A stretch of 64,000 nucleotides of DNA from Clostridia bacterium (GTDB lineage Bacteria; Bacillota; Clostridia; UBA1212; DUPL01), in the NCBI GenBank assembly GCA_050951325.1, contig JBMNIW010000012.1, positions 96,001 to 160,000 of the forward strand, read 5' to 3'. Below the pieces are notes generated by a model. It was not told the origin of the DNA. It did no database searches and was given only the letters and a program-made list of their open reading frames with translations. Position 1 is the first letter of the stretch. The number at the start of each line of letters is the position of its first letter. The position numbers and the translations under genes are program-made. Below are positions 15,235 to 30,963 of this stretch, one piece after another.

Positions 15235-15750
15235 TTACTCTTTTATATATGGACCGCTTTGCTTTTCAAACATTATTGCATAAAGACCGTCTTTACGAAT
15301 CAACTCCTTGTGGGTTCCGCTCTCAACAATCACTCCATTTGAGAAAACAATTATTCTGTCAGCAATTTGGGAAGCCGTAAGGCGATGTGAAATAAAGATG
15401 GCGGTTTTGTCATGTACCGCTTTCATATACCCTTCGTAAATCTCACTCTCTGCTTTTATATCAAGACTTGCAGTAGGTTCATCCAGGATAAGTATAGGAG
15501 CATTCTTGTACAACGCTCTTGCCAGAGCAAGTTTTTGCGACTGGCCACCTGTGCACGAAGTTGCTCAGACCAGTTTGGGATAACACTGCTTCTATATCGC
15601 CGTTCTGTTCATCGGCTGTAATATTTTCTTTTATGGTAAACGCAAATATTTTAAAATCCTGGAACACTGCGCTAATTAACTTTTTGTACTCTTCATTTGG
15701 TATGTCCCATATATCGACACCATTTACAGTTATCTTCCCTTTGTCGGTCT
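15235..15750 (-). pseudogene. Remnant of an ABC exporter ATPase C-terminus (5'-truncated, internal deletion/frameshift)
   Basis: GKITVNGVDI..VFQDFKIF Q-loop in one frame; GGQSQKLALARALYKNAPILILDEPTA and ISHRL in another; Walker A and TM domain absent. Confidence 0.8.
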
Positions 15751-15754
15751 GTTA

Positions 15755-16438
15755 TTATTTCTTTTTGTACTCATACTCTTTTTCATTTATAAGGTTGCCG
15801 TTTGAATAAAACTCCTTTTCTCCCACCAGATTTCCCTTAATGTCGTAATAGTAGCGGGTATAAAATATCACATTGTCCTCCGAAACATAGTATTCAGCTT
15901 TTAACACTTTCCCTTTTTCGTCGTTGATGTACTTTGTAAAGGTGGTGACATCACCCAACGTACTTTTTACCATGACAAGAAACCCATTCTCGTCATACTC
16001 ATATTCTTCTACAATGCCAGTGTCTAAAAACTCCATTATTGCCACATCACCATTCTCATTGAGAGTGACATCCACCACTTCTTTCGCTTCACGACCTTCT
16101 TTTAACTCCACAATCTTATAACCGGTCTCATCATAAATCCAGTTGGTAACCCCTTCAATTTGACCATCTTTGTTGAAATTAGTAGACTCAATTTCCCTTC
16201 CCTGCTCGTCGTACCTGATAACATTGTAGAATTCAATCTCATCCTCTTCGTTATACATAGTCTTCTTGACAATGTTCTGCTCGTCATTCTCATACTCATA
16301 GGTGATATAGGATTCTACATTGCAATCCGCATCCAAATTTATTTCCTTTGTCAACAAGTACTCCGTGCTGCTGTTGCAAGCTGCCAACATAAGCAGCGTT
16401 CCCAGTATAATACATACTGTTGTGATTCTCTTTCCCAT
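15755..16438 (-). CDS. Lipoprotein with YD-like (Y-x-Y-D-x-x-G) beta-repeats
   Basis: Lipobox LAAC; RYDEQGR, EYEYDENG and YYYDIKGN repeats. Confidence 0.75.
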   Translation of the reverse strand: MGKRITTVCIILGTLLMLAACNSSTEYLLTKEINLDADCNVESYITYEYENDEQNIVKKTMYNEEDEIEFYNVIRYDEQGREIESTNFNKDGQIEGVTNWIYDETGYKIVELKEGREAKEVVDVTLNENGDVAIMEFLDTGIVEEYEYDENGFLVMVKSTLGDVTTFTKYINDEKGKVLKAEYYVSEDNVIFYTRYYYDIKGNLVGEKEFYSNGNLINEKEYEYKKK

Positions 16439-16450
16439 TTTTTCCTCCCA

Positions 16451-17218
16451 TCAGTTTGCCTTTTTATACTCATACCTTGTAATGCCTATCTGTATGTCAT
16501 ATGGTGAAAACACCTCAATTGCAACGAGGTTTCCATTTTTATCGTAGGTATGCTTCAGGTATCTTGCAAGTTCGCCATTCTGATAATCCTGGCGTTCAAG
16601 CACTCTCCCTTTTGAGTCGTTGATATAAATAGTATATACACCGTAAGCATCATCGTTCTTCACATGGCATTTAATGAGATATCCGCTTTCATCATACTCA
16701 TATTCCTCGATAATTTTTGAGTTTAAACTCGTCACATTCTCAATCTTTAAGGTATCACCCTTGTCATTCAAGATAACTTTTCGTGTAAATTTTATGTTGG
16801 AATCCTCATCATATGTAACCTCTGTATGTCCTGATTCCTCATAGGTATTCACTTTTGTTGAGTATGCAACACCACTTTTATTGTATAGTTTCTTTTCTAT
16901 TTCCCTACCCTTATCATCATATTTGTATACTGCACGGCTTTCCAAAGAGTTTCCAATATGCTTTTCTGAAATGACAAGCTTGTTGTCCTTGTCATACTGA
17001 TATGAGATATAGTGTCTAATATTCCCGTCCTTGTCGCAATCCGACTCCTTAACCAGATTATTCTTTTTGTCGTACTCATAAAGTATGTAATACCTAACGC
17101 TTCCATCTACATCATAGACTGTCTGCTTTGTCATCAAATATTCAATTTCGCCACCGCAGGCTGACAAAGCAAGCAATGATGTCAGCAGTACGAATAATAT
17201 GGATAATCTATTTATCAT
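16451..17218 (-). CDS. Lipoprotein with YD-like repeats (tandem paralogue)
   Basis: Lipobox LSAC; YEYDKKNN, YKYDDKGR and EYEYDESG; shares EYL.TK start and YEYKK end with its neighbour; GGAGG RBS. Confidence 0.75.
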   Translation of the reverse strand: MINRLSILFVLLTSLLALSACGGEIEYLMTKQTVYDVDGSVRYYILYEYDKKNNLVKESDCDKDGNIRHYISYQYDKDNKLVISEKHIGNSLESRAVYKYDDKGREIEKKLYNKSGVAYSTKVNTYEESGHTEVTYDEDSNIKFTRKVILNDKGDTLKIENVTSLNSKIIEEYEYDESGYLIKCHVKNDDAYGVYTIYINDSKGRVLERQDYQNGELARYLKHTYDKNGNLVAIEVFSPYDIQIGITRYEYKKAN

Positions 17219-17390
17219 GACATCCTCCAACTGTGTTTATACGATGATTATACTGTACAGACCATTTTGGGACAACTATACTTTATCCCTATTTTATTAA
17301 CACACCGTGAACAAATCTCACATTTCATATTTTCATAAAGGGTTGTAAACATATCCATACTATGCTAAAATCAGCGCACGAGGTGATTTA

Positions 17391-18512
17391 ATGAAACTTG
17401 ATTTGGATATTGAACAATTTTGGAAAGATGATGAACTGGCCCACAAAGAGAACTGTTTTTCAAAAGAGGCCCCTCAGGTGGCTCTGGGTATTAGAATGAG
17501 TGACGAATGCGTATTTGCAGAGCTAGGAGAGGAAGGCCAGCCTTGGGGACACACTCCTCTCGAAAGAAGAATAGAGCTCAATAAAAGATACAATGAAAAG
17601 GCTTTAAAAATAGTGGGAAGAAAACTGCTGAGAGAAGAGTTTCCTGATCCGAATTCAGCATTACCTCCAGTTAAGGGGATTGGAGAAGTATTTGGAGGAC
17701 AATATGTATTTGACGGGAATACTACATGGCTCAAAAGGACTATAAACACTCCAGAAGAGTTAAAGGAAAGACTCGATATTATCGATAAGATGGATATAAG
17801 GAGTTTTATACTTCCGCAAAACTGGGAAAGCGAAAAGAAGAGAGTCTACGAAACATATGGTAAAAAACCCGGACTTTTCCGTGGTGTAAGAGGTCCGGTT
17901 ACATTGGCTACATCGGTATTTGGTACAGAAAACCTGATATTCCTTATTTACGATGACCCGGATTTGGCAAAAAGATTTTCAGACACAATTACCAGGGTAT
18001 TGTTGGCGTACATAGATATATTTATAGAAGAGGCGGGTTACACACAGGACAATTTCATTCATGGATTTGCATTCAGCGATGATGACTGTTGCCTTCTGAC
18101 ACCTGAAATGTATGAGTTCTTCGCATACCCAATTCTTAAGACGGTGTTTGAGAAAACTGCTCCAAACCCTGAAGACTGGAGATATCAGCATTCAGACTCA
18201 GACATGGGGCATTTGATTCCAATTCTTGCAAGGTTTAACTTAACAGGATGCAATTTTGGACCTACAGTCACAGTAAGGGAAATTAGAAAGCACATGCCCA
18301 ATACCCGCATAGACGGACAACTGTCTCCGTTAACTTTTATGAGAAACGACGAAGAGCAAATAACCAAGGAAGTTTTAAGGGATATTGAGATGGCAAAAGA
18401 AAATGATGCAAGAGGCCTCAACCTCACGACGGCAGGCTCAATTAACAACGGCTCTCTTCTCAGCAGCATGCGCCTTATAATGGCTTTAATTCAGAACTAT
18501 GGCAGATATTAA
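17391..18512 (+). CDS. Uroporphyrinogen decarboxylase (URO-D)-like TIM-barrel protein
   Basis: RGPVTLA..FG.ENLI, FSDDDCCLLTPEMYEFFAYP and HSD motifs typical of the URO-D/MtaA superfamily. Confidence 0.7.
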   Translation: MKLDLDIEQFWKDDELAHKENCFSKEAPQVALGIRMSDECVFAELGEEGQPWGHTPLERRIELNKRYNEKALKIVGRKLLREEFPDPNSALPPVKGIGEVFGGQYVFDGNTTWLKRTINTPEELKERLDIIDKMDIRSFILPQNWESEKKRVYETYGKKPGLFRGVRGPVTLATSVFGTENLIFLIYDDPDLAKRFSDTITRVLLAYIDIFIEEAGYTQDNFIHGFAFSDDDCCLLTPEMYEFFAYPILKTVFEKTAPNPEDWRYQHSDSDMGHLIPILARFNLTGCNFGPTVTVREIRKHMPNTRIDGQLSPLTFMRNDEEQITKEVLRDIEMAKENDARGLNLTTAGSINNGSLLSSMRLIMALIQNYGRY

Positions 18513-18530
18513 GCAATTGGAGAGATATGA

Positions 18531-19064
18531 ATGGAAGTACGTGTATCTACTGTTGTAAATTACAATGAATACAAAACCTTTTTCAGGTTTTCAATGTTCC
18601 GGGGCAAAGGATACAGATTCAAATCTTTTGCTTCAGTTCTAATCATGCTTGCTGCAATAGCAGTATCATTGTCCGGAACCATCTTATACTATAACCCCCT
18701 TATGCTTTTTGCATTTATTTTCTCTCTGTTTATGACCATAACTCTTCTAATTATTTGGTTTTATATGCCGAGATATTCATACATAAATACATTCATAGCA
18801 AAAGGATCCAAGGACGATTTTGTGTTTTTGGATGATATATTCATGGTGAGTTCCGTAACTGAGTATATAAAAAGCCAGACAGAAATCAGCTACAGTCAGG
18901 TTTTTAAAATCTACGAAACCAACAAACACATATACATTTACCTTAGTCCTGGATTTGCTTACATAATCAACAAAAAGACATTTGTTTATCACGCAGACAT
19001 TGCGGAACTTAGAAGTTTTTTTGTATCAAAGATGCCTGATAAGTATATAAACTGTTTGTCATGA
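18531..19064 (+). CDS. YcxB-like membrane protein
   Basis: Two TM helices followed by KIYETNKHIYIY..AYIINK. Confidence 0.65.
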   Translation: MEVRVSTVVNYNEYKTFFRFSMFRGKGYRFKSFASVLIMLAAIAVSLSGTILYYNPLMLFAFIFSLFMTITLLIIWFYMPRYSYINTFIAKGSKDDFVFLDDIFMVSSVTEYIKSQTEISYSQVFKIYETNKHIYIYLSPGFAYIINKKTFVYHADIAELRSFFVSKMPDKYINCLS

Positions 19065-19070
19065 AATATT

Positions 19071-19481
19071 TCATCTTAATGGTACAATCTTACGCCAAAG
19101 AGGAATCTTGAATCTTTGGCGTATTTTTTTTGCATGCAACGTTTCCTTTCTTCTGTATATCTTTGACACCACTCCAACCACATGTTCGGGAAAAACAATG
19201 CCGTCTGTTCTTTTGTACGCATCGCCTTTTGTCACGTATCCAAGGTCAGTTTTTCTGTAGACCCTGCGCAGGACAAATATACCTTCAGCAGGTTCAAGCA
19301 TAACTATGTCTCCGATATCAAGGTCCCTGCCATCGGAGTAAACAAGCTCTATCTTGTCAATTCCTTTTCTGACAAGAGGTTCCATATCACTTGTTATTGC
19401 AGTAAACCTGACACCTTCGCATACTTTCAAAAGGCTTCTAATAGCTGGGAGCAAATCCTTAACAAATATGTCCACAAGCAT
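19071..19481 (-). CDS. S24/S26 peptidase-like protein, probably catalytically degenerate
   Basis: TSDMEP in place of GxSMxP; IGDIVM; VLRRV in place of HR; TKGDA; VVGVV. Confidence 0.7.
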   Translation of the reverse strand: MLVDIFVKDLLPAIRSLLKVCEGVRFTAITSDMEPLVRKGIDKIELVYSDGRDLDIGDIVMLEPAEGIFVLRRVYRKTDLGYVTKGDAYKRTDGIVFPEHVVGVVSKIYRRKETLHAKKIRQRFKIPLWRKIVPLR

Positions 19482-19482
19482 T

Positions 19483-19953
19483 CTAAACCCCTTTTATTAT
19501 TCTCCTTCTAATTCTTGCCACCAAAGTGTAGAGATATAACAGCTGCCTGCGAAAGATTCTAAGCTTTCTCCACATTGTAAAGACCAAACACCAAACAACA
19601 TTATTACAGTCAATGCTTAAATCTCCTCTGTATATTCTCTCAACCCTGCCAATAACATCACAAACAGGGACGCTTCCATCGCTGTAAAGGCAGGCATCCC
19701 CTATTGTATAAACCGTTCCCCCCCTCACCTTATATATTCTATGAAGTATATATTTATTGCATATTCTAAATAAAACTATATCCCCGAGCTTTACCTTGCA
19801 AAATGTACCGAGCAGAACCTTGTCTTTGTTGTGCCGTATAAAAGGCAGCATGCTGTTTCCGGACACAGTGAATTTAACCCTCAAGTTTTGTCTTAGCAAT
19901 TCCTCAACTAGAGGGAACAAATCCTTACACGACACTATTCTCTTATACGTCAT
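19483..19953 (-). CDS. S24/S26 family peptidase (Ser/His type, no N-terminal TM); candidate leader peptidase
   Basis: VSGNSMLPF, LGDIVLF, YILHRI, IGDA and VIGRV motifs. Confidence 0.8.
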   Translation of the reverse strand: MTYKRIVSCKDLFPLVEELLRQNLRVKFTVSGNSMLPFIRHNKDKVLLGTFCKVKLGDIVLFRICNKYILHRIYKVRGGTVYTIGDACLYSDGSVPVCDVIGRVERIYRGDLSIDCNNVVWCLVFTMWRKLRIFRRQLLYLYTLVARIRRRIIKGV

Positions 19954-20791: not shown

Positions 20792-21106
20792 TCAGCTCTG
20801 TAACTCTCCAAAATAGAAACCTGGATGTTTTGTATTACCTATATTATCTTTCATCCCATTAGCATAAGGATCAAAGGTTATGTCTTTATTTAGATATCTG
20901 TCGAGCAAGTCATCTATAGCTGCAAATACTGCGGCAGCACTACAATCATGCAGTGTTCCGCTATTAAAACTAACATTATATGATTTATTATCAACTTTTA
21001 GAGTCCCTTTAAAGTTAAAATGTTTGTAGCCAAAACACGTATCTGCAATGCTTTCCCCTAAGCAAATTTCTTCAAATCTTAACTTTGGCTTTTCATACAT
21101 TTTCAT
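20792..21106 (-). CDS. Candidate RiPP precursor (~104 aa) with RRE-type leader YEKPKL, three Cys and a C-terminal Ser
   Basis: MKMYEKPKLRFEEICLGESIADTC...GELQS; AGGGAG RBS; overlaps the end of the rSAM gene. Confidence 0.65.
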   Translation of the reverse strand: MKMYEKPKLRFEEICLGESIADTCFGYKHFNFKGTLKVDNKSYNVSFNSGTLHDCSAAAVFAAIDDLLDRYLNKDITFDPYANGMKDNIGNTKHPGFYFGELQS

Positions 21107-22163
21107 ATATTTCACTCCCTTTCGTTGAGATTAGCTTTTCTAATATCTTATGACTGTATTCAGCCTCTCGGCATAGATATTTTGGATTGCCAAATAAACT
21201 CTTTGTTTCACAGTATCTCAAGGCAGGACATGCCATGCAAAACAACTTATACTTGCAATCGCGACATGCGTCTATTTGCTTCAATTCAGGCACAGTTTCC
21301 ACAAATGTCTCCCAAGCCTTTTCAAAACCCTCGGTCAATGGATCTGTCATAAACTCTCCAAGCAATTGGCATCCAATTAATTTCCCATCCCAAGTAATTG
21401 TATATGACTGGATACCTGCGTCGCATCCAAATAATTCGCTCTTCTTTTCTTCTACTGTATATTCTATCTCTATTGGCTTATCAATTAAATCCTTCGACAA
21501 TCTCTCCAAATACGCTCCATAAATAAAATCAATATTCTCCTCAGGTGACAATCTGCATGCATCCACTTCAGCAATGCCATGGCGTGTGGTTCTACAAACA
21601 ATCCTGCTCCTGCTAAAAGTAATGTCCTCTCCAAAACTCTTTGCCAGCATATATATGTTTTTGTAATCTTCAATGTTGTCTTTAATAATCGTTGTTCTAA
21701 TATTAATTGATGAAGGCAAAGTCGTTAATTTCTTCACTCCATCCAGCATTCTGTAAAAAGCATTGCCGCTACCGCACACCTTATCATAAATGGATGGATT
21801 GGAGCCATAAACAGATATTCCAATCTGATGAGGAGGACACTTTTCCAACGCATCCATTACTTTGTCGCTGACAAGAGTTGCATTGGTGTACAGGACAATA
21901 ACAAATCCCATTTTATATATTTCCGTATAAATCTCGCAAAAGTCCTTTCGCAGCATAGGTTCTCCACCTGTCAGCAAAAGCTGCAATGTTCCGCAGTCCC
22001 TTGCCTGCTTTGCGAGATCAATCCACTCTTTGGTTGTAAGTTCCCTAAGGCCCAAACTGCTTATTGTGTCCTCATCCACCCTGACAAGGCACATTTTGCA
22101 TTTCAGATTGCACCTGGCAGTCAGTTCAAAGGTACCGTTTAAAGGTATTCTCTCTTCGTGCAT
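21093..22163 (-). CDS. Radical SAM/SPASM-domain peptide maturase
   Basis: CNLKCKMC (CxxxCxxC), LTGGEP, YTNATL; SPASM C..G...ITWDGKLIGC...CRDCKYKLFCMAC..C; ATG 22163 after GGAGGAG. Confidence 0.93.
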   Translation of the reverse strand: MHEERIPLNGTFELTARCNLKCKMCLVRVDEDTISSLGLRELTTKEWIDLAKQARDCGTLQLLLTGGEPMLRKDFCEIYTEIYKMGFVIVLYTNATLVSDKVMDALEKCPPHQIGISVYGSNPSIYDKVCGSGNAFYRMLDGVKKLTTLPSSINIRTTIIKDNIEDYKNIYMLAKSFGEDITFSRSRIVCRTTRHGIAEVDACRLSPEENIDFIYGAYLERLSKDLIDKPIEIEYTVEEKKSELFGCDAGIQSYTITWDGKLIGCQLLGEFMTDPLTEGFEKAWETFVETVPELKQIDACRDCKYKLFCMACPALRYCETKSLFGNPKYLCREAEYSHKILEKLISTKGSEIYENV

Positions 22164-22164
22164 T

Positions 22165-22437
22165 TTATTCCTCCTCCATAAGAATACCAAAAGTTTTGAG
22201 TTCCTCCAAAAAGTCACTTGCGTCACTTTTTGCAATCTCCAAAGGAACCTCATACTCCCTCATAATACAAGAGACCAGCTCTTCAAAACCCTTCTCCTCT
22301 TGGAGTACTTCGAATATATATGCGCCTGTTTCATTTAAGACCATAATACCGTTAGCTTTTTTTATTGCCTCTCCAAGTGGGACTATAATATATGCATCTC
22401 TAATTTTCCTCAGTACAAAATTTTGATTGACACGCAT
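22165..22437 (-). CDS. PqqD family / RiPP recognition element (RRE)
   Basis: FVLRKI..YIIVP...LNETGAYIFEVL...EYEV...KSDASDFLEELKTFGIL. Confidence 0.88.
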   Translation of the reverse strand: MRVNQNFVLRKIRDAYIIVPLGEAIKKANGIMVLNETGAYIFEVLQEEKGFEELVSCIMREYEVPLEIAKSDASDFLEELKTFGILMEEE

Positions 22438-22450
22438 TTGCAGCACCTCG

Positions 22451-22717
22451 CTATTCTTCCAGCATTTTTTGCTCTTTAAGGATGGATATGAATGCCTGGA
22501 CATCCTGACGAGCTTCCTCTTCCGTAACGTCATATTCACTTATCAGACTGTCAACTAGTTCGTCAAATGTAGTCTCTTCCATTAGTTTACCGAACAAAAA
22601 CGCTGCTGTATTATTAACTGCAATTACACCATCCAGGTCCACCACACTATCTTCTACTGGAATAATAACGTTAGTACCTGCGATTTTGCGCATAATGTAA
22701 TTTCCGCAAACCTTCAT
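22451..22717 (-). CDS. PqqD family / RRE (second copy)
   Basis: YIMRKIAG..VIIPV...VNNTAAFLF...EYDVTEEEARQDVQAFISIL; GGAGG RBS. Confidence 0.88.
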   Translation of the reverse strand: MKVCGNYIMRKIAGTNVIIPVEDSVVDLDGVIAVNNTAAFLFGKLMEETTFDELVDSLISEYDVTEEEARQDVQAFISILKEQKMLEE

Positions 22718-22739
22718 TAACCCTCCTCCCTTCTTAATA

Positions 22740-23627
22740 CTAACCAACATAGACCACAAGGCGCTGTGTAACACTCACCCCTTCCGAATTACTTACAGAA
22801 TAAGTGACAGTGTACTGACCTTCCTTATTCGTATCCACTTTGCCCGAGAAACCAACTAACTCCGTTAAATCACCATCCTTCTGATCATACGCACTCTTTA
22901 TATACTCATAAGGATTAAATACATCCCCTTTTTTCAAAGCCACGGTTTTTCTTGTAAGTATCAGGGTAGGGCCTGCACTACTACCTTCTACTTCAACAAA
23001 AATGGACTTGCTGGCAACATCGTTGAACATGTTTTGTACAGTGAAAGTAAATTTGTATTTGAAAGAGTCTGCAAATGCTTCATAGTTATACGAAATGGTC
23101 CGAGTAATGTCATTTCCAAAGCCGTCATCCGCCCTTATGGCATCCTTTTCAATCAGAACAGTCACCAAATCATCAAGATCCTCACTGGTTATTACAACAT
23201 CATTTGAAACATGTATTGACGGTCCTGTGTAGTTTATGAGGCTGAGGCGTCTTTCATTGATTGCTAAATTCCCATTTGAGCCAACCACGCTGTACCTTAC
23301 AATCTTCTTTCCAATTGAAGTGTCAGTAACAATAATTACATTGACCTGGTCGGTGATGTCTGTCTTGCCGTCGATATCCAAAGCAGTCACACCTTCCATA
23401 ATGTCAAAAGCCTCTTTTCCAGAGTACTTCATATCACCGAGCGAAAGTCTGATGGTTGGTTTCTTGTTTGAATCAACACCGCTAATGTTTGAAAGGCTCG
23501 CTTTAATAATATCCTTGTTGATTGCATATGCTATGTCCTGATGAAAAAAGTACAACATAAACAAACTGACTATCGATACTGCGGCAAGCACTATTATCGT
23601 TATATTCTTAACAATCTTCAATTGCAT
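22740..23627 (-). CDS. Membrane-anchored protein with tandem bacterial Ig-like (DUF5011-type) domains
   Basis: N-terminal TM; TALDIDGKTDITD, ADDGFGNDIT and AYDQKDGDLT..VDTNKEGQYTVTYSVSNSEG repeats. Confidence 0.75.
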   Translation of the reverse strand: MQLKIVKNITIIVLAAVSIVSLFMLYFFHQDIAYAINKDIIKASLSNISGVDSNKKPTIRLSLGDMKYSGKEAFDIMEGVTALDIDGKTDITDQVNVIIVTDTSIGKKIVRYSVVGSNGNLAINERRLSLINYTGPSIHVSNDVVITSEDLDDLVTVLIEKDAIRADDGFGNDITRTISYNYEAFADSFKYKFTFTVQNMFNDVASKSIFVEVEGSSAGPTLILTRKTVALKKGDVFNPYEYIKSAYDQKDGDLTELVGFSGKVDTNKEGQYTVTYSVSNSEGVSVTQRLVVYVG

Positions 23628-23633
23628 CACCTC

Positions 23634-24845
23634 CTAATTAACAAGACCATATTCTTCAAGAAGAGCAAGCCTCCTTCTTGCAACACTCAAACCTTTAACC
23701 ATTCTAGGCTCTTCTGTTCTTCTCATATATTTAATAATTCTTAATACCCACACAACAGGAAGTAAAAAAGGATGTTTCTGAAGTACTGGGTACGAATATT
23801 TAAGATACTCTCTGGAAGGAAAGCATGCCTTCAAAAACCCGAAAATGACATTCCCTTTCTTCCTGTTTAAAGATGCCACCTGTACAACCGGTCCTGAAAA
23901 AACCCTCTCGCTACTGGACTTTCCAAACACTCCTCCTTCAATCATGTCAACAAGCAAAGCAGCACGGTTTGTTACTTTCAAACTTTTGCCAAAAGGAATG
24001 CCAGAAACGTCTAAACTTATCCCCAGTTCATTATTTCCTATGTCAAACAAGCAGTAAAGCAATTGCTCACAACCGAGTTCTCTAACTATTGCAATTATTT
24101 GCTCCCAGCAAATCTGCTCATAGTACTTTTTTGCATAAAGAACCGAATCCATACACTGCCTTATACCTACACCATAACTTATCAAGTGTTTATATAAGTG
24201 AAGGAAGATAAACAGGAAGTGATCCGTGTGACAAAGGGAGTATATTTCACATCCTTCGATTTCCAGCGTTATGCATCTATCAAAGGATTCCCTAAAGTAT
24301 TTATTAAGCGCCTTCCTTACACCCGATAAACCAAATGGATTAACATGCACTTCAATACATAGATTTAAATCAGGGGATATATATGAAATTGCCTGAGCAT
24401 CCTTTGGGTCTTTGTTTGCACTTGCTGCATCCACTTTGTATCCGTATCTTAAAAGCAAGTCATGGCAAAGATCATAATCTTCCTTTCGTATGTAAATATC
24501 TTCGTCAGAAGATGTCCGAAGATCCGGTGATTCATACAAACTTCTTACAACAAGACCTTTTAACACAAGAGGCTTAACTCCGTTTTGTACAAGATAATTG
24601 TACACCTTAATGAAAGCAAAAGTTCTTTTAGTCTGGCTTATCATGTTGTATAACGCCTGACTACGCATACTCTCTTTACCTTCAAACTCAAGCAAACTTG
24701 CAGCATCATAAACAAGAGGGAGAAGGTTGTGTTTGCGGGCAAGGGTAAATACCTCATCAAGGTCCACATCTAATTCAATATTCGGCTTTTGGTTTCTTAT
24801 ATGACTTTCAATAAGCTTCAAGAACGTCTTGTAGGTCGGGTTCAA
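23634..24845 (-). CDS. Nucleotidyltransferase family protein (NTP_transf_5-like)
   Basis: PLVLKG...Y..PDLRTSSDEDIYI, IEVH, HLYKH...GVGIRQCMD; TTG start after GGAGGTG. Confidence 0.85.
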   Translation of the reverse strand: MNPTYKTFLKLIESHIRNQKPNIELDVDLDEVFTLARKHNLLPLVYDAASLLEFEGKESMRSQALYNMISQTKRTFAFIKVYNYLVQNGVKPLVLKGLVVRSLYESPDLRTSSDEDIYIRKEDYDLCHDLLLRYGYKVDAASANKDPKDAQAISYISPDLNLCIEVHVNPFGLSGVRKALNKYFRESFDRCITLEIEGCEIYSLCHTDHFLFIFLHLYKHLISYGVGIRQCMDSVLYAKKYYEQICWEQIIAIVRELGCEQLLYCLFDIGNNELGISLDVSGIPFGKSLKVTNRAALLVDMIEGGVFGKSSSERVFSGPVVQVASLNRKKGNVIFGFLKACFPSREYLKYSYPVLQKHPFLLPVVWVLRIIKYMRRTEEPRMVKGLSVARRRLALLEEYGLVN

Positions 24846-26586
24846 GACTTTCACCTCCGCCAAATAACGTACACTTGCCGCCACTTACTCGGTACACTCT
24901 GTCACAAATACCAAGCACGCTTGGCCTGTGTGTTGTAAGTATGCAGGTTACTTCGCCCTTTATCCTCTTTATATTCATCAGAATCTTTCTCTCGGTATCA
25001 ACATCGAGGCTGCTGGTGGCTTCATCAAGGAGCAGTATTGGAGCTTTCCTTATCAACGCCCTGGCAATAGAGAGCCTTTGTATCTGTCCTTCCGAAAAAT
25101 TCTTTCCTCTTTCCTCAACATTTGAGTTGATTCCATCCGGCAGGTTTGATACAAAATCATACGCATCTGCCATTACCAACGCATCCTTTATTTCCTCTTC
25201 TGTTGCATCGGGCTTTGCCAGTCTCAAGTTATCTGCAATTGTACCTGAGAATAACATATTGTCCTGAGGAACATAGGAAAAAAGAAGTCTTGCCTTGTCG
25301 TCAAACACAATGTTTTTATGCTTCTCGTTAAAGGGATAAATGCCAAGTCTTCCTTTTTGATGTTTTAATTGTCCAAGCAATATCTTAAGCAGGGTGGTTT
25401 TTCCTCCTCCCGAAGGACCAACCAGTGCAATGGTCTCCCCAGGCCTTGCCAGGATGCACGCATCTTCAAACACCTTCTTTCCTTTTCTGTAACTGAAGGA
25501 AACATCCTCAAGACTAATTACCACTCCTCTTTTCCTTGCACTTTTAAGTGTCTGCTCATCATTGGTAGCATCACAGTCATCTGTTGGCTTTTCAATGATT
25601 TCCATAATTCTTCCTGCTGATGTTGTTGCAGATATGGAAGATGGGATTAAGGATATTAAGGAAGAGAAGCTTGATCTGAGCATACCTGCGAGCTGCAGGA
25701 ACAATACCATTGTTCCAAAGGTAATGAAACCTTGGTACAATCTGAATACCGCCCAGCCAAAACAAAGATATGATACAATTAGTCCGGTTATCGACATAAA
25801 CAGATGAGTGTGTATTGAAAACTTGTTGTAGTCCAGGCTTGTTGTCTTAAAGTTTTCCAACTGCTCTTTGTGTCTGTTTGTAAATACAGACTTCAGCCCC
25901 AGAGCTTTAATAGCTGCAATATTTACAAAAGACTCTTCATGGTAGGACATAAGTTTCGAACTTGCTTCCCTCATTTTTTTGTTGTGCTTCCTCATTTTCT
26001 TTACCAGTAAATCCGATACAATCATTGATACTGGTGCACTGGCAAGAGCCAATATAGCCATAACATAGTCAAAGTACATGATGATTATAAATGAGCCGGT
26101 AAACTGCAATACCCTTGTTATGAAGCTTGGTATCATGCCTACAACACTACCCGCAACAGTCCTTGCATCAGAGTTGATTCTATTTAGAAGGTCTCCTGAA
26201 TGAAAGTCCATTAAATGCTCCGAGTCAATATTTAATATGCTGTCATAGATGTCTATTCTTATGTCATTTATTACCCTTAAATCAATTTTTGAGGTAATCC
26301 TGTTGGTTAGTGCTCCTGTCAATATCTCAAACAAACCAAAAGATATGTATATTACTGCTATCGTGACAATAACTTTTATCTGCCTGTTTGCAAGGCTGTC
26401 TATTAAATATTTGGAGGCAACAGCATTGAGAAGCCCGAATATTGCGCCAATGGAAAAGAGGAAGATATAAAATGCGACTTGTGCTTTATATCTTTTTATG
26501 TACCCTAATATCCATTTTGCCTCTATCCACATTTCTTTTAAAGACCCGTCTTGGATCTTCCTCTTTATGTTAAACAGATTCACCAT
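24808..26586 (-). CDS. ABC exporter (fused TMD plus ATPase, no peptidase domain)
   Basis: Multi-TM N-half with SGDLLNRI; GPSGGGKTT, YVPQ, FSEGQIQR, LLLDEATS and TTHR. Confidence 0.93.
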   Translation of the reverse strand: MVNLFNIKRKIQDGSLKEMWIEAKWILGYIKRYKAQVAFYIFLFSIGAIFGLLNAVASKYLIDSLANRQIKVIVTIAVIYISFGLFEILTGALTNRITSKIDLRVINDIRIDIYDSILNIDSEHLMDFHSGDLLNRINSDARTVAGSVVGMIPSFITRVLQFTGSFIIIMYFDYVMAILALASAPVSMIVSDLLVKKMRKHNKKMREASSKLMSYHEESFVNIAAIKALGLKSVFTNRHKEQLENFKTTSLDYNKFSIHTHLFMSITGLIVSYLCFGWAVFRLYQGFITFGTMVLFLQLAGMLRSSFSSLISLIPSSISATTSAGRIMEIIEKPTDDCDATNDEQTLKSARKRGVVISLEDVSFSYRKGKKVFEDACILARPGETIALVGPSGGGKTTLLKILLGQLKHQKGRLGIYPFNEKHKNIVFDDKARLLFSYVPQDNMLFSGTIADNLRLAKPDATEEEIKDALVMADAYDFVSNLPDGINSNVEERGKNFSEGQIQRLSIARALIRKAPILLLDEATSSLDVDTERKILMNIKRIKGEVTCILTTHRPSVLGICDRVYRVSGGKCTLFGGGESLEPDLQDVLEAY

Positions 26587-27997
26587 AATACCTCAACTTC
26601 CTGTAGTAGGGATATTTGTATAAATAACCGTACCTGTAACCGTAACTGCCTATACCCGTTTCTGTGAATGTTAAAACTGCTCCGAGCACATTCACGCGGC
26701 TGTATGACAAAGACGTCAAAGAGTCTATTATCAGACTTCTTTTGGCATAATCCTGTCTTATGCAGTAAATTGCATGGTCCGCATATTTTGCAAAAGCAAC
26801 AGCATCTGGAACCATGTGACATGGTGGAGTGTCTATTATTACAAAATCAGCCATGTTTCTAAGCATTGCAATAACTTCTACAAGGGAGTAATGTGACAAT
26901 ATCTTGTTTGGATTTTGATATGATTTGTGTCCTGCAAGTAAGCTAATATTGTATTTGTTAATATAATATATGCTGTGTTCTATGGTTTGTTCTCCCTCTA
27001 CAATCTCCCCGATACCTTTAAGAGGCATGACAATATCCAACATGTTCAGGACCGAAGGATTCCTCAAATCACCATCTACAAGGATTACTGAGTAACCCAT
27101 TTGTCCAAGAGAAATACTTAAGTTTATGGCAACGGTTGTCTTTCCTTCCTGGGGTACACTGCCTGCTATTACAATTACATTGTTCTTTTTGTCCGATGTT
27201 TCCTTTAGCAATTTCGTTCGTATCGAACGGATCGACTCGTTAAAAGCACTTCCTACTTTCTCATTCAGGATGTTTATGGAATAATCAATGTCTTTTTTTC
27301 GTCTCTTGAACTTCACCACCGGAAGCACTCCAAGGCATTCGAGGTTGAGTATTTTCCTTACATCATCCACCTTTCTTATTGTTGTTCTGGTCAATGCGTA
27401 AAGGAATATAAATCCGCAGCCAAGCACGAACCCTGCCAGAAAGCCTATCTTTGTCATACGGGAATAAATAGGTCGGTTTGTAGGAGTTGTCGGCACTTTA
27501 GGGGATGACAGCATGTTCATCTTTGTATCTCCTATTACAAACTCAGCCACTTTTGGATAGTTCCTAATTACCGAGTTAAGTATGTTGTATGCGTCATTTG
27601 GGTTTATGCTGGTTACCATTATTGTAAAAAGATTTGTGTCGGGTATTGCTACAGCGTATATACTTCCATTAAGGTAAGGTACGTTCAGATCCTCGCACAC
27701 AATTTCCTGAAGAAGATAGCTGTTTAAAATGTATGGAAATGTTACCGCCATCTGGGATGCGGTCTGACTATTGTAGTAGTAGCGGTAGCTGTACCCTGCG
27801 TAATTGTCCTCATATGCTGCAAGAATTGTGAAGGTGGCTTTTGATGTGTATAACGGAGTATACTTTCTTGCAGAGACATAAAAGAACAGCCAGGACATAA
27901 CGCTTGCAAGCACAAGCACAAGATACCACAATCTTTTTATCCCCTTAATCAAGTCACTTAGAAGTACCATAATATCTATAGAGGTTTCATTATCCAT
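26570..27997 (-). CDS. Fused Wzz-like modulator plus BY tyrosine kinase (Wzc/CpsCD-like) no. 2
   Basis: Two TMs flanking the P.YTSKAT loop; GSVPQEGKTT, LVDGDLRNP, IIDTPP; Tyr cluster SYGYRYGYLYKYPYY. Confidence 0.9.
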   Translation of the reverse strand: MDNETSIDIMVLLSDLIKGIKRLWYLVLVLASVMSWLFFYVSARKYTPLYTSKATFTILAAYEDNYAGYSYRYYYNSQTASQMAVTFPYILNSYLLQEIVCEDLNVPYLNGSIYAVAIPDTNLFTIMVTSINPNDAYNILNSVIRNYPKVAEFVIGDTKMNMLSSPKVPTTPTNRPIYSRMTKIGFLAGFVLGCGFIFLYALTRTTIRKVDDVRKILNLECLGVLPVVKFKRRKKDIDYSINILNEKVGSAFNESIRSIRTKLLKETSDKKNNVIVIAGSVPQEGKTTVAINLSISLGQMGYSVILVDGDLRNPSVLNMLDIVMPLKGIGEIVEGEQTIEHSIYYINKYNISLLAGHKSYQNPNKILSHYSLVEVIAMLRNMADFVIIDTPPCHMVPDAVAFAKYADHAIYCIRQDYAKRSLIIDSLTSLSYSRVNVLGAVLTFTETGIGSYGYRYGYLYKYPYYRKLRYYGESV

Positions 27998-29411
27998 GAC
28001 GCACCTCCTTTGTGTCGTCTTTCTTCTTATACAAAGGGACTCTTCTGTAATAGTAGCTTTTATACATGTTGTTTTTTAGAGAGTTAATAAAAGGAAAACC
28101 TTTAAGATTGTTTAAAACAACGCCAAGCAAATGGCATTTGCTTTGCTCCAGTCTGTCAATTGCATCATTTATTTCTCCAACTCTTGCAAAGTCCTGTTTA
28201 ACTACTAGTATTGAAGCATCTGTAATGTTTGCGAGTATTTCTCCATCGGACACTGCACTAAGCGGCGGTGTATCTATGATTACGAAGTCCATTTCCTTTG
28301 CGTATCCGTCCAAAAGATTTTGAAAATCCTTGCTTGCAAGAATCTCTGCAGAGTCTTTGTATGATTCCTTGTTCAGCATGAGCCATACATTGCTCCTTTC
28401 ATCAACTTTTGGTTTTTTCCCCTGGATGAAATCCCTAAAACTACCTGCATCCTTTTTCCCTAGTATTTTGTACAACGCAGGCTTTTTTAGATCCGCATCC
28501 AACAGTAGAACTTTATGGTTGTTCTCAGCGAGAGTTAGCGCAATATTTGCACACACTGTGGACTTTCCTTCGTTTTCATTTACGCTTGTAACCAGTATGC
28601 TTTTCAATCCCATACGTTGGCAGCTGTTTTCTATTTTCATGCACAATTTTTTGTATGAGCATACAAAATCAAAACTTGCAAACATATCAGTAACAAGTGG
28701 CGTTCTCTTTGCCCGCTTTATAATCTGCCTTATGGTTTTGTACTTTTTCTCATGCCTTATGGTTGAAAGCAGTTTTGTATCCAGCTTGGAATTTGCTTGT
28801 TTTTCATTCTTTACAGTATCCCTAAAGTATGAAAGAGCACAAACTGCACAGGTTGACAAAAACGCACCTGCTGCAAAGGACAGTTTTTTTATCCTTGACT
28901 CATCCATGCTGTTTACCGGCCACCCTGACATCTCAATGTCTTCAATGACTTCAAGGTGCGCATTCCCATATATGTAATCAGACACAAGCCGGTAGTTTTC
29001 AATAATGAGCTTCAAGGTCTTGAAAGCATCTTCAGGATTTTTGGCTGTTACTCCAACCACCAAAAGGTTTGTTTCAGGTATGGCGTAGGCATCAATTTTA
29101 CCAGGAAGTTCATCATACCCTGCAATTTGAGACGCTTTCTCCTTCAAAATATCACTGTCCATTATTTGGGTGAAAATGTTTGCCATTTCTATCGTGGTAC
29201 TTAGATTGGCATACATGGAACTGGTTGCGTCTTTTGTACTCACTACAAATGTAACCTGACTTCTGTACTCAGGCACATATGTGTATCTGACATATGATAC
29301 TGCAAGCATCGCAACAACCGCTCCGCCAAGTACTATTGCCCACAAGTTGAAAAGAATATCTCTCAGCAAAGTAAAGATATCGATATCTTCGACACTAAAC
29401 TCTTTCTCCAT
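27990..29411 (-). CDS. Fused Wzz-like modulator plus BY tyrosine kinase no. 1
   Basis: PEYRSQVTFVV loop between TMs; SVNENEGKST, LLDADLKKP, IIDTPP; YKSYYY tail. Confidence 0.9.
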   Translation of the reverse strand: MEKEFSVEDIDIFTLLRDILFNLWAIVLGGAVVAMLAVSYVRYTYVPEYRSQVTFVVSTKDATSSMYANLSTTIEMANIFTQIMDSDILKEKASQIAGYDELPGKIDAYAIPETNLLVVGVTAKNPEDAFKTLKLIIENYRLVSDYIYGNAHLEVIEDIEMSGWPVNSMDESRIKKLSFAAGAFLSTCAVCALSYFRDTVKNEKQANSKLDTKLLSTIRHEKKYKTIRQIIKRAKRTPLVTDMFASFDFVCSYKKLCMKIENSCQRMGLKSILVTSVNENEGKSTVCANIALTLAENNHKVLLLDADLKKPALYKILGKKDAGSFRDFIQGKKPKVDERSNVWLMLNKESYKDSAEILASKDFQNLLDGYAKEMDFVIIDTPPLSAVSDGEILANITDASILVVKQDFARVGEINDAIDRLEQSKCHLLGVVLNNLKGFPFINSLKNNMYKSYYYRRVPLYKKKDDTKEVRHG

Positions 29412-30247
29412 TACGCATTCCCTTCTTCAACAACACATACCATGCTTGTTGTATAGGTTTCGGCACCTTCGCTCACACTATAGTAGATTTTGTACTCTCC
29501 TGGCTTGGATGTGTCCAGATCGGAATAGATATTCACATGGGAGATGTCAAGAAACAGACCGTCAATGCCCGTTACAGACTGTATGTAATCTTTTGGGTTA
29601 ACTTCCTCACCAGTATTTACATACAAAACGTAACTCTCCAGTTTAATCTTTGGCGTTTTGACATTCCTTTCCCTGACCACCACCTCAAAGCTCAAATCCA
29701 CCACATCGCCTTTTGAATTTGTAACCTTGGCATTTACTGTGTACACTCCGGGTACATTTGTTGTCAGATTGCCAATGTCATACTTTATCTTGTTGCTTAT
29801 GTCCCCATCGATGAGACAATAGCATTTTATGAAGTCTTCCATGTTTATAGTACTGCCGATATAAAACTGTGGTTCATGGTCAATTTGAAATCTTGGTGAT
29901 TCGTAGTCTGTGTACTTTACCTTTCTTGTAAGTTTGGACACGTTGTTATCGCTGTCGCACACCGCATACGTTATGTTGCATACGCCCTTCTCAAGAAACT
30001 TTGATACGTTTTCAATGAGTATTTTGTCAGTCACATCCCCATCCTTGTCGTCATGGGCAGACAACCCTTCAAACAACTTGTCCTTATCCATAATGCTCAC
30101 CTCAATTACTTTACGGTCGCTTGTTATGCTCGGATATGTTCCATTGGTTTTTACTCCGTACACTCCAAACTGGATAAAGTAAAAGATGCCTGTCACAATG
30201 GACAAGAGAAAGACAACCATTCTGAAAATTTTCACAAAAACCCCCAC
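29411..30247 (-). CDS. Membrane-anchored protein with tandem bacterial Ig-like domains
   Basis: N-terminal TM; AHDDKDGDVTD, LIDGDISN..PGVYTV and LDTSKPGEYKIYYSV. Confidence 0.75.
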   Translation of the reverse strand: MGVFVKIFRMVVFLLSIVTGIFYFIQFGVYGVKTNGTYPSITSDRKVIEVSIMDKDKLFEGLSAHDDKDGDVTDKILIENVSKFLEKGVCNITYAVCDSDNNVSKLTRKVKYTDYESPRFQIDHEPQFYIGSTINMEDFIKCYCLIDGDISNKIKYDIGNLTTNVPGVYTVNAKVTNSKGDVVDLSFEVVVRERNVKTPKIKLESYVLYVNTGEEVNPKDYIQSVTGIDGLFLDISHVNIYSDLDTSKPGEYKIYYSVSEGAETYTTSMVCVVEEGNA

Positions 30248-30963
30248 CTATCAATATTCTCGTCTTTTAATATTCTCCTTGGATTTATATAAAATAACGT
30301 TTTTGCATATTCAGAACCGTAGCGGTAACAAATATAATCGTACGCTTCGTCTAGTCTGGTGGTTCTTTGGTATGGACTGTGGGCGTCACTAGCGACTATA
30401 TGTACAAGACCATGTTTAAGCATGTATTTGGCCAATTTTTGCGCAGTTGCTCCAAATTGACCAAGTACGCTCCCTTTGTTAACTTGAAATATACAACCTT
30501 GGCTTGCCAGTTGCATTAGTAGACTTGTGTCATCATAAAACAGCTCATATCTTTCGGGATGTGCAATGATTGGAATGAGATTTGCGTTTATGATAGATTT
30601 GATATTTGTAAGAATGTTATGAGTTAAGTCTAAGACGGGTAATTCGATTAATATGTATCTGGTGTTGTTAATTGTTATCAGTTTATTGTCCTTTACTAGG
30701 TCAACCACATCTTTTGTAAGGTAAATTTCCATTCCTTTGTACAAGGTTATTGGTATTTCTTTTGTTAAATCCTGCAGTTTCTTAAAACAGTTTTCGAACC
30801 ATTCTCCATAGTAGTTGTTATGTATCGGGATATTACTGTGCGGCGTTGCTACCAATGCTCTTACTCCGCACTGACATGCCATCTCCAGCATTCTGACGGA
30901 TTCGTAGTAAGACACAGAACCATCATCGACACCTGGTATCAGGTGTGCATGAATGTCTATCAT
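30232..30963 (-). CDS. cpsB: CpsB/CapC (YwqE-type) PHP-family tyrosine phosphatase
   Basis: MIDIHAHLIPGVDDGS, ATPH, AHPERY and VASDAH. Confidence 0.92.
   Translation of the reverse strand: MIDIHAHLIPGVDDGSVSYYESVRMLEMACQCGVRALVATPHSNIPIHNNYYGEWFENCFKKLQDLTKEIPITLYKGMEIYLTKDVVDLVKDNKLITINNTRYILIELPVLDLTHNILTNIKSIINANLIPIIAHPERYELFYDDTSLLMQLASQGCIFQVNKGSVLGQFGATAQKLAKYMLKHGLVHIVASDAHSPYQRTTRLDEAYDYICYRYGSEYAKTLFYINPRRILKDENIDRWGFL

Follow-up and report, generated by a model that had tools for sequence, protein, structure and literature searches.

The window analysed here, a 64,000-nucleotide stretch of DNA, carries on its minus strand a short ORF lodged between the genes for a radical SAM (rSAM) enzyme and a kinase. 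The question raised by this locus is whether that ORF is a gene at all and, if so, whether its product is a substrate matured by the enzymes encoded around it or something else. A first-pass annotation had read it as a candidate precursor with a lasso-like YxxPxL leader, three cysteines and a C-terminal serine, translationally coupled between its two neighbors. The coordinates of the small gene and of the features around it are collected in Table 1.

Table 1. Features of the small gene and its cluster, with positions given in window coordinates
Feature	Position	Strand	Remarks
Capsule-type genes	26570..30963	-	Two Wzz/P-loop (BY-kinase-like), Ig-like protein, CpsB/CapC phosphatase; directly upstream
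MsbA-like ABC exporter without peptidase domain	24808..26586	-	
PF14907 nucleotidyltransferase (PsmN/LppN type)	23634..24884	-	PF14907 at 2.3e-42
Membrane protein with Ig-like surface domain	22740..23630	-	In operon; in related locus L010 also upstream of the PqqD gene
Second PqqD-family RRE	22451..22717	-	PF05402 at 5.8e-15; ORF listed to 22774
PqqD-family RRE adjoining rSAM	22165..22437	-	PF05402 at 2.2e-13; ORF listed to 22539
rSAM/SPASM enzyme without fused RRE	21093..22163	-	Likely start Met31; ORF listed to 22253
Candidate precursor/substrate gene	20792..21106	-	104 codons plus stop at 20792-20794
Predicted leader, residues 1-19	21050..21106	-	Tyr4 (-16), Pro7 (-13), Glu18 (-2)
Predicted core, residues 20-104 (85 aa)	20795..21049	-	
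Cys24 codon, core +5	21035..21037	-	Invariant 25/25
Cys55 codon	20942..20944	-	Invariant 25/25
Terminal Ser104 codon	20795..20797	-	Invariant 25/25; proposed phosphorylation site
P-loop kinase, PEPCK/HprK fold, 272 residues	19968..20786	-	
S24/S26 (archaeal-type SpI-like) peptidase	19483..19953	-	Ser34 and His71
Degenerate peptidase paralogue	19071..19481	-	Asp for catalytic Ser, Arg for His; sigpep_I_arch 3.5e-7

The small ORF and its family

The listed ORF starts with a GTG at 21115; we prefer the ATG at 21106 as the likely start, since a GGGAG Shine-Dalgarno sequence lies 8 nt upstream of it and relatives have the same first residues. Translation of the minus strand over 20792-21106 yields a 104-aa protein with YEKPKL at residues 4-9, cysteines at positions 15, 24 and 55, and Ser104 as its last residue, i.e., the sequence features named in the first-pass annotation are all in place. 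The coupling that it proposed is likewise borne out by the gene spacing, as the stop codon of the rSAM gene (21093-21095) falls inside codons 4-5 of the ORF, giving a 14-nt overlap, and the ATG of the kinase gene (20786) comes 5 nt past the stop of the ORF.

No Pfam or NCBIfam model was found for the small ORF, and a word-indexed search with it returned a 99% identical copy as its sole match. When 1.84 billion representative sequences were searched exhaustively with HMMER, four proteins came up at E-values up to 0.001: two true relatives, 108 and 100 residues long, a fragment of 35 residues and a repeat protein of 1660 residues. Two rounds of profile searching followed, with 15 matches in the first and 21 in the second, and a metagenome scan found four loci with the family. 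The family set used below consists of 25 distinct full-length members; they are between 100 and 136 residues long and share 20-41% identity with the window protein. Left out of it were P0002 (99% identical and ending in Ser), P0003 (a fragment), P0004 (the 1660-aa repeat protein, E = 4.8e-7, set aside as unrelated on account of its length and repeats) and P0029, a 64-residue protein from a 526-nt contig that is divergent past about residue 41 and ends in His. The family is rare, and a profile search of the same class found it in none of the 398 other genomes scored. A single-sequence search of 100 relatives gave weak matches inside large ORFs (best 1.3e-4), which were judged to be due to chance.

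That the ORF is more than a chance reading frame follows from its 24 further distinct full-length relatives and from the substitution pattern of the four family members for which DNA is available: in all six pairs pN (0.16-0.33) lies far below a saturated pS (0.76-0.82). In the middle segment of the protein pN is likewise far below pS in the same four members. The small ORF is a conserved gene under selection. In one RNA-library contig a T>A change at window position 21102 turns Lys2 into Ile; the variant is also present in the near-identical P0002, and we therefore regard it as a strain variant of leader residue 2.

The stretch, with all its sampled words, is present in 14 DNA runs of digester and bioreactor material, and each of these could be its source. 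Four RNA libraries have contigs that overlap the operon; they cover parts of it at low depth, no meaning attaches to the gaps between them, and DNA carry-over is possible. RNA-library contigs from two studies fall on the ORF, one lying wholly inside it and another, the one with the Lys2Ile variant, running across its start, and these hint, weakly, that the small ORF is transcribed.

Across the 25 members, invariance is limited to eight residues: Tyr4, Pro7, Leu16, Glu18, Ala21, Cys24, Cys55 and Ser104. Conservation of the leader and of the terminal Ser in homologues was the check that the first-pass annotation had proposed, and the leader Tyr and Pro and the terminal Ser are indeed each kept in 25/25; two of its three cysteines are invariant as well, while conservation does not extend to the third, Cys15, which is part of the leader. 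The C-termini comprise nine different five-residue tails, every one ending in Ser, and the tail motifs YIPVHS and NTK..GF are kept within subfamilies.

An AF2 prediction of the small protein from 15 sequences produced no confident fold (pLDDT 46), and the low-confidence model has a hairpin, places a helix behind Cys55 and leaves the last 30 residues unstructured. The Atlas model had a pLDDT of 0.41, with feature matches to unnamed Bacillota clusters at 0.90-0.91. Given the purifying selection on the middle of the protein and the predicted hairpin and helix, this part may not be a peptide-like core but a small protein with a fold of its own.

Predicted leader and cleavage site

The first-pass annotation is largely right in outline, but its lasso-like label fits less well, as the nearest described system is that of the linear polyphosphorylated peptides (LPPs), encoded by lppA-K-B-S-D-N clusters in Bacillota, in which a SpI-like peptidase removes the YxxP leader (Popov et al., Nat Commun 2026, PMC13381572), and a genome-wide search (the genome being 96% complete) gave no match to PF13471, the model for the transglutaminase-like B2 protease of lasso clusters. 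According to that account, LPP precursors carry the motif YxxPxVLxHQxIxFETxxS, numbered Y-16, P-13, F-3, E-2, T-1 and S+3. Tyr-16 and Pro-13 contact the RRE; Phe-3, Glu-2 and Thr-1 matter for cleavage; cleavage after T-1 is carried out by the SpI-like LppS, which depends on the RRE LppB; and the HprK-like LppK polyphosphorylates Ser+3 (PMC13381572). Searching PDB sequences with the profile of the present family gave no match, even at E-values up to 10, and hence did not recover the LppA leader chain of 9x8z either.

Anchoring the family on its Tyr and Pro brings Phe or Gly to -3 and Glu to -2 and puts the predicted cut after Ser19, i.e., at GES/IAD (the slash marks the cut). The first-pass annotation had suggested cleavage near ESIA/D, and the analogy with LPPs thus moves the predicted site two residues upstream. 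Tyr-16, Pro-13, Glu-2, Ala+2 and Cys+5 are each present in 25/25 members and Phe-3 in 23/25, whereas two other positions of the LPP motif, Thr-1 and Ser+3, are each found in 0/25. Position +3 is occupied by Asp or Glu in 20 of the 25 members and by Ala, Met or Asn in the other five, and since it is never Ser or Thr, the LPP phosphorylation site is absent from this family. Thr stands at +4 in 11/25, and no conserved hydroxyl residue lies near the cut site; of all hydroxyl residues, only the terminal Ser is invariant among the 25 members. We considered whether the acidic residue at +3 could be a built-in phosphoserine mimic that allows cleavage without prior phosphorylation, a bare possibility that is weakened by the five members with Ala, Met or Asn there.

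The predicted cores of the family span 81-109 aa. A core of about 80 aa had been called unusually long in the first-pass annotation, but such length has precedents, LPP precursors being reported as 35-200 aa (PMC13381572). When the rSAM-adjacent PqqD protein was modeled in complex with precursor residues 1-40, the score was 0.34, versus 0.26 for the control, a difference that speaks neither for nor against binding.

Genes of the cluster

The genes run along the minus strand without real gaps from the CpsB/CapC phosphatase through the ORF to two S24/S26 peptidase-like proteins. Profile and fold matches agree with the neighbors that had been proposed from the first reading of the sequence: two PqqD RREs, an rSAM/SPASM enzyme, an HprK-like kinase and an S26-like enzyme. 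The best PDB matches of the rSAM-adjacent PqqD protein are lasso B1 RREs, and the RREs match LppB at an E-value of 0.028 versus 3.7e-8 and 1.3e-7 for lasso B1 proteins. Matching PF00717 at 27 bits (cut-off 23.3), the S24/S26 peptidase has sigpep_I_arch as its best NCBIfam match (2.7e-7), which is below that model's cut-off. Its Ser34 and His71 are kept in five of six aligned peptidases, including all four relatives, and the sixth is the degenerate paralogue, which, judging from its substituted catalytic residues, may be a non-catalytic partner. Pfam and NCBIfam searches detected no second protease class in the cluster, and no match to an Asn-synthetase-like lasso cyclase or to a B2 protease among 10 cluster proteins.

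The presence of two PqqD and two peptidase genes looks like the outcome of a local duplication of an RRE/peptidase pair. The tandem PqqD genes (window 22165-22774, minus strand) compare with a single PqqD gene in each of the related loci L009, L010, L012 and L013, and L009, L012 and L013, which could be followed past the peptidase gene, have a single peptidase gene each. The degenerate peptidase paralogue is without the C-terminal tail that is present in the other peptidases.

Several further observations concern the surroundings. No glycosyltransferase is annotated in the inspected capsule-type stretch. On the other side of the cluster, two adjacent paralogous lipoprotein-like genes (window 15755-17230, minus strand; 227 and 259 aa) have YD/RHS-like repeats, with a weak RHS_repeat match, and a 92-residue ORF at 15235-15513 (minus strand) covers no more of an ABC ATPase domain than its C-terminal end and is probably a gene remnant.

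Related loci

DNA was available for six loci of the family, and in all six the small gene has an rSAM gene upstream and a kinase gene downstream; in the five with enough flanking sequence, a PqqD gene upstream and an S26 peptidase gene downstream are present too (5/5). URO-D-like and YcxB-like flanking genes are common to L010 (3937-5197, minus strand) and the window (17391-19064, plus strand), and L010 is therefore taken to come from a syntenic relative. The L010 precursor is 35% identical to that of the window, and the partial URO-D-like protein is by eye far more alike.

A search of 400 other Bacillota genomes with a kinase profile matched 20 of them, and 20 loci were taken from 16 genomes. 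Eight of these loci have the arrangement PqqD-rSAM-gap-kinase-peptidase. Nine have a kinase and a PqqD gene, with or without a peptidase gene, and no rSAM gene beside the cassette, and the kinase of the window is homologous to the kinases of kinase-PqqD-S26 loci. One locus (L057) has the kinase followed by the rSAM gene, with the ORF upstream of the kinase, and two are arranged otherwise, L053 having only a kinase and an ABC gene, and L054 a kinase gene followed at some distance on the strand by genes for an ABC protein, a peptidase and a PqqD protein.

In the eight gaps and at L057 we found 12 short ORFs, all of which have the same YxxP leader spacing and at least two core cysteines (12/12). 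Eleven of them sit in rSAM-kinase gaps, which is the slot occupied by the long gene, and a Cys stands at +5 after the predicted cut in six. At L045, L050 and L051 (genomes G606, G444 and G532) the series PqqD-rSAM-short precursor-kinase-S26-ABC is directly followed by a second cassette, PqqD-kinase-S26. Four ORFs at those second cassettes read FET/xxS, the published LPP motif, in register with the long family, so that two pathway types with near-identical leaders stand side by side in these tandem cassettes. In the window itself, a motif scan of same-strand small ORFs within about 3.5 kb of the kinase gene found only two other matches. Both are antisense to a plus-strand gene that contains them, and for this reason they were judged spurious.

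The rSAM enzyme and the cysteines

The rSAM protein matches PF04055 at 8.7e-20 and has a CxxxCxxC motif as well as C-terminal Cys motifs. Its best NCBIfam matches are ScmE, WgkB, AhbD and PqqE, all below cut-off, and its PDB matches are PqqE and SkfB. With two invariant cysteines in the long family and at least two cysteines in every rSAM-linked precursor, Cys-based cross-links are the most economical guess for its product; since the enzyme has no close characterized relative, the thioether is chosen only as the commonest precedent. That the rSAM enzyme acts on the two cysteines is the weakest step of our reading. A precedent for cross-links on a protein-sized substrate is offered by the ranthionine system CrpA/CrpC (PMC13692751).

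The kinase and the terminal serine

The kinase gives weak sequence matches to the ScmC, HprK and HprK_rel_A models. Its AF2 model has a pLDDT of 87.8, and a Foldseek search with this model places PEPCK (E = 1.6e-6, TM 0.55-0.59) above HprK/P 1kkl_C (E = 1.6e-5); PEP carboxykinase and HprK/P share a fold. His122, Lys143 and Asp162 are invariant among 21 aligned kinases, and those of the long family group together in a single branch (support 97/95). Apart from one weak match (E = 1.8e-4), no second kinase of this type was found in the genome.

PadeK, ThcoK and SyanK are described as acting on the linear precursor, whose conserved C-terminal Ser they phosphorylate, often more than once, and the PF14907 enzyme PsmN as adding a hexose to that phosphate (PMC9266682, PMC6993621). 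The same feature as in the PadeA/ThcoA/SyanA type is present here, with an invariant C-terminal Ser (25/25) and an adjoining kinase gene (6/6 loci), and by analogy we infer that Ser104 is the phosphorylation site. Among the ORFs of other Bacillota, a terminal Ser is found in three of the 12 short rSAM-linked ORFs and in none of 10 ORFs without an rSAM link, so terminal-Ser phosphorylation would not be a general rule of this machinery.

Proposed pathway and alternatives

Taken together, we think it rather probable that the ORF encodes the substrate, or precursor, of an rSAM-containing, long-core relative of the LPP pathway. In the proposed sequence of events, a PqqD RRE would bind the Tyr4-x-x-Pro7 leader, and the rSAM/SPASM enzyme, having no RRE of its own, would modify Cys24 and/or Cys55, with thioether cross-links as the most likely product. 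The kinase would phosphorylate the free-ended Ser104 in the manner of PadeK, possibly more than once, and the PF14907 enzyme may add a hexose. The active SpI-like peptidase, together with an RRE, would cut after Ser19, behind Phe or Gly at -3 and Glu at -2, and the MsbA-like pump would export the 85-residue product, from an operon that is continuous with the capsule genes.

An unlikely variant of this scheme keeps the protein as a substrate and lets the kinase act near the new N-terminus, e.g., on Thr23 at +4, with the terminal Ser needed for something else, such as letting the exporter recognize the product, the chemistry of the rSAM enzyme, or linkage to a polysaccharide or to the wall. It draws on LppK, which targets Ser3 of the core and not the C-terminus (PMC13381572), and on the terminal Ser being found in just 3/12 of the short rSAM-linked precursors; but position +3 is never Ser or Thr in the long family and +4 is Thr in only 11/25, compared with 25/25 for the terminal Ser. 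We hold it to be decidedly unlikely that a large, structured leader (NHLP type) or scaffold (pearlin type) makes up most of the protein, leaving as the core only a C-terminal tail that is modified at its last residues and perhaps released. Large protein-like leaders do exist, according to PMC12537861, and both the subfamily-specific tail motifs and the purifying selection on the middle of the protein would fit with one. The SpI-type motif at residues 17-19, however, has the same spacing as the proven LPP site, the invariant Cys24 follows five residues past that motif, as in 6/12 of the short precursors, and the cluster is without a second protease class.

It is very improbable that the small protein is an accessory, immunity or chaperone-like factor, the true precursor being encoded elsewhere or unannotated. 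A length of 100-136 aa is unusual for an rSAM RiPP, and no family model matches it; against this, the leader motif stands at the very N-terminus, the gene fills the same slot as the short YxxP/Cys precursors of related clusters, and the only two other motif ORFs within about 3.5 kb of the kinase were judged spurious.

Starting again from the protein as a substrate of an LPP-like pathway, one could go further and imagine a product in the form of a protein-sized (81-109 residue) RiPP-like molecule, cross-linked by the rSAM enzyme, whose C-terminal Ser phosphate or phospho-sugar ties it to the capsule machinery of the same operon. We give this extended idea little chance. If it were true, the molecule might prime, anchor or terminate a polysaccharide chain and not be an antibiotic, it would represent a new way to join a ribosomal protein to a surface polymer, and the LPP/paeninodin tailoring set would gain a function.

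Comparison with known systems

The SynChlorMet (SCM) cassette (TIGR04248-04251) has in common with the present cluster an HprK-like protein (ScmC), a PqqD relative (ScmD) and rSAM/SPASM proteins (ScmE/ScmF). The SCM models are the best NCBIfam matches of the kinase and the rSAM enzyme here and lie far below their cut-offs, with 21-35 versus 125 bits for ScmC and 111 versus 400 for ScmE. We know of no described product of the SCM cassette. Our literature search found no description of a RiPP system combining an rSAM enzyme, an HprK-like kinase and a signal peptidase.

With sactipeptides and ranthipeptides, the cluster shares an rSAM/SPASM maturase with an RRE and conserved cysteines in the substrate. 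It differs from them in that there are only two conserved cysteines, 31 residues apart, the RRE is discrete and not fused, and a kinase, a nucleotidyltransferase and an S26 peptidase are present; nor is there a close sequence relation, the best NCBIfam match of the rSAM enzyme being ScmE, at 111 versus 400 bits.

The phosphorylated and phosphoglycosylated lasso peptides, i.e., paeninodin (PadeK), the substrates of ThcoK and SyanK, and pseudomycoidin (PsmK, PsmN), form another point of comparison. As they are described in PMC9266682 and PMC6993621, they have a [Y/W]xxP leader, a B1-type RRE, an invariant C-terminal Ser that is the kinase site, and a PF14907 enzyme, all of which have counterparts here. 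In contrast to lasso clusters, there is no adjoining cyclase, no B2 protease in the genome, a protease of the S26 type, a core of 85 aa, and an rSAM enzyme. Lasso precursors of the paeninodin type have a [Y/W]xxPx[L/V/I/F/A] leader with Thr-2, a core of about 15-25 aa and an acidic ring residue at 7-9, whereas the present family, though it has YxxPxL, has cores of 81-109 aa and no Thr-2.

The likeness to LPP clusters extends to the SpI-like peptidase, the discrete RRE, the HprK-like kinase, the PF14907 NTP transferase, the MsbA-like pump, the leader spacing (Tyr-16, Pro-13, Phe-3/Glu-2) and the location in a capsule locus, LPP clusters often being found inside such loci (PMC13381572). Unlike in LPPs, an rSAM/SPASM enzyme is added, Ser+3 is missing, and two cysteines and the terminal Ser are invariant. 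The main text of the LPP paper (PMC13381572), supplements aside, does not contain the words "radical", "SPASM" or "thioether". The gene order is also different (PqqD-rSAM-precursor-kinase-peptidase versus A-K-B-S), as are the hosts, which are Bacilli for LPPs and here include a MAG of the Lachnospiraceae as well as metagenome contigs with no host stated; the range of the family is widened to digester and rumen anaerobes, in capsule operons. On our reading, the LPP logic of leader, RRE, SpI-like peptidase and kinase would here be joined to an rSAM enzyme and applied to an unusually long substrate, the long core and the strict terminal Ser being particular to this family, and the system would link the two known rules for the kinase site, that of LPPs (Ser+3) and that of lasso peptides (terminal Ser).
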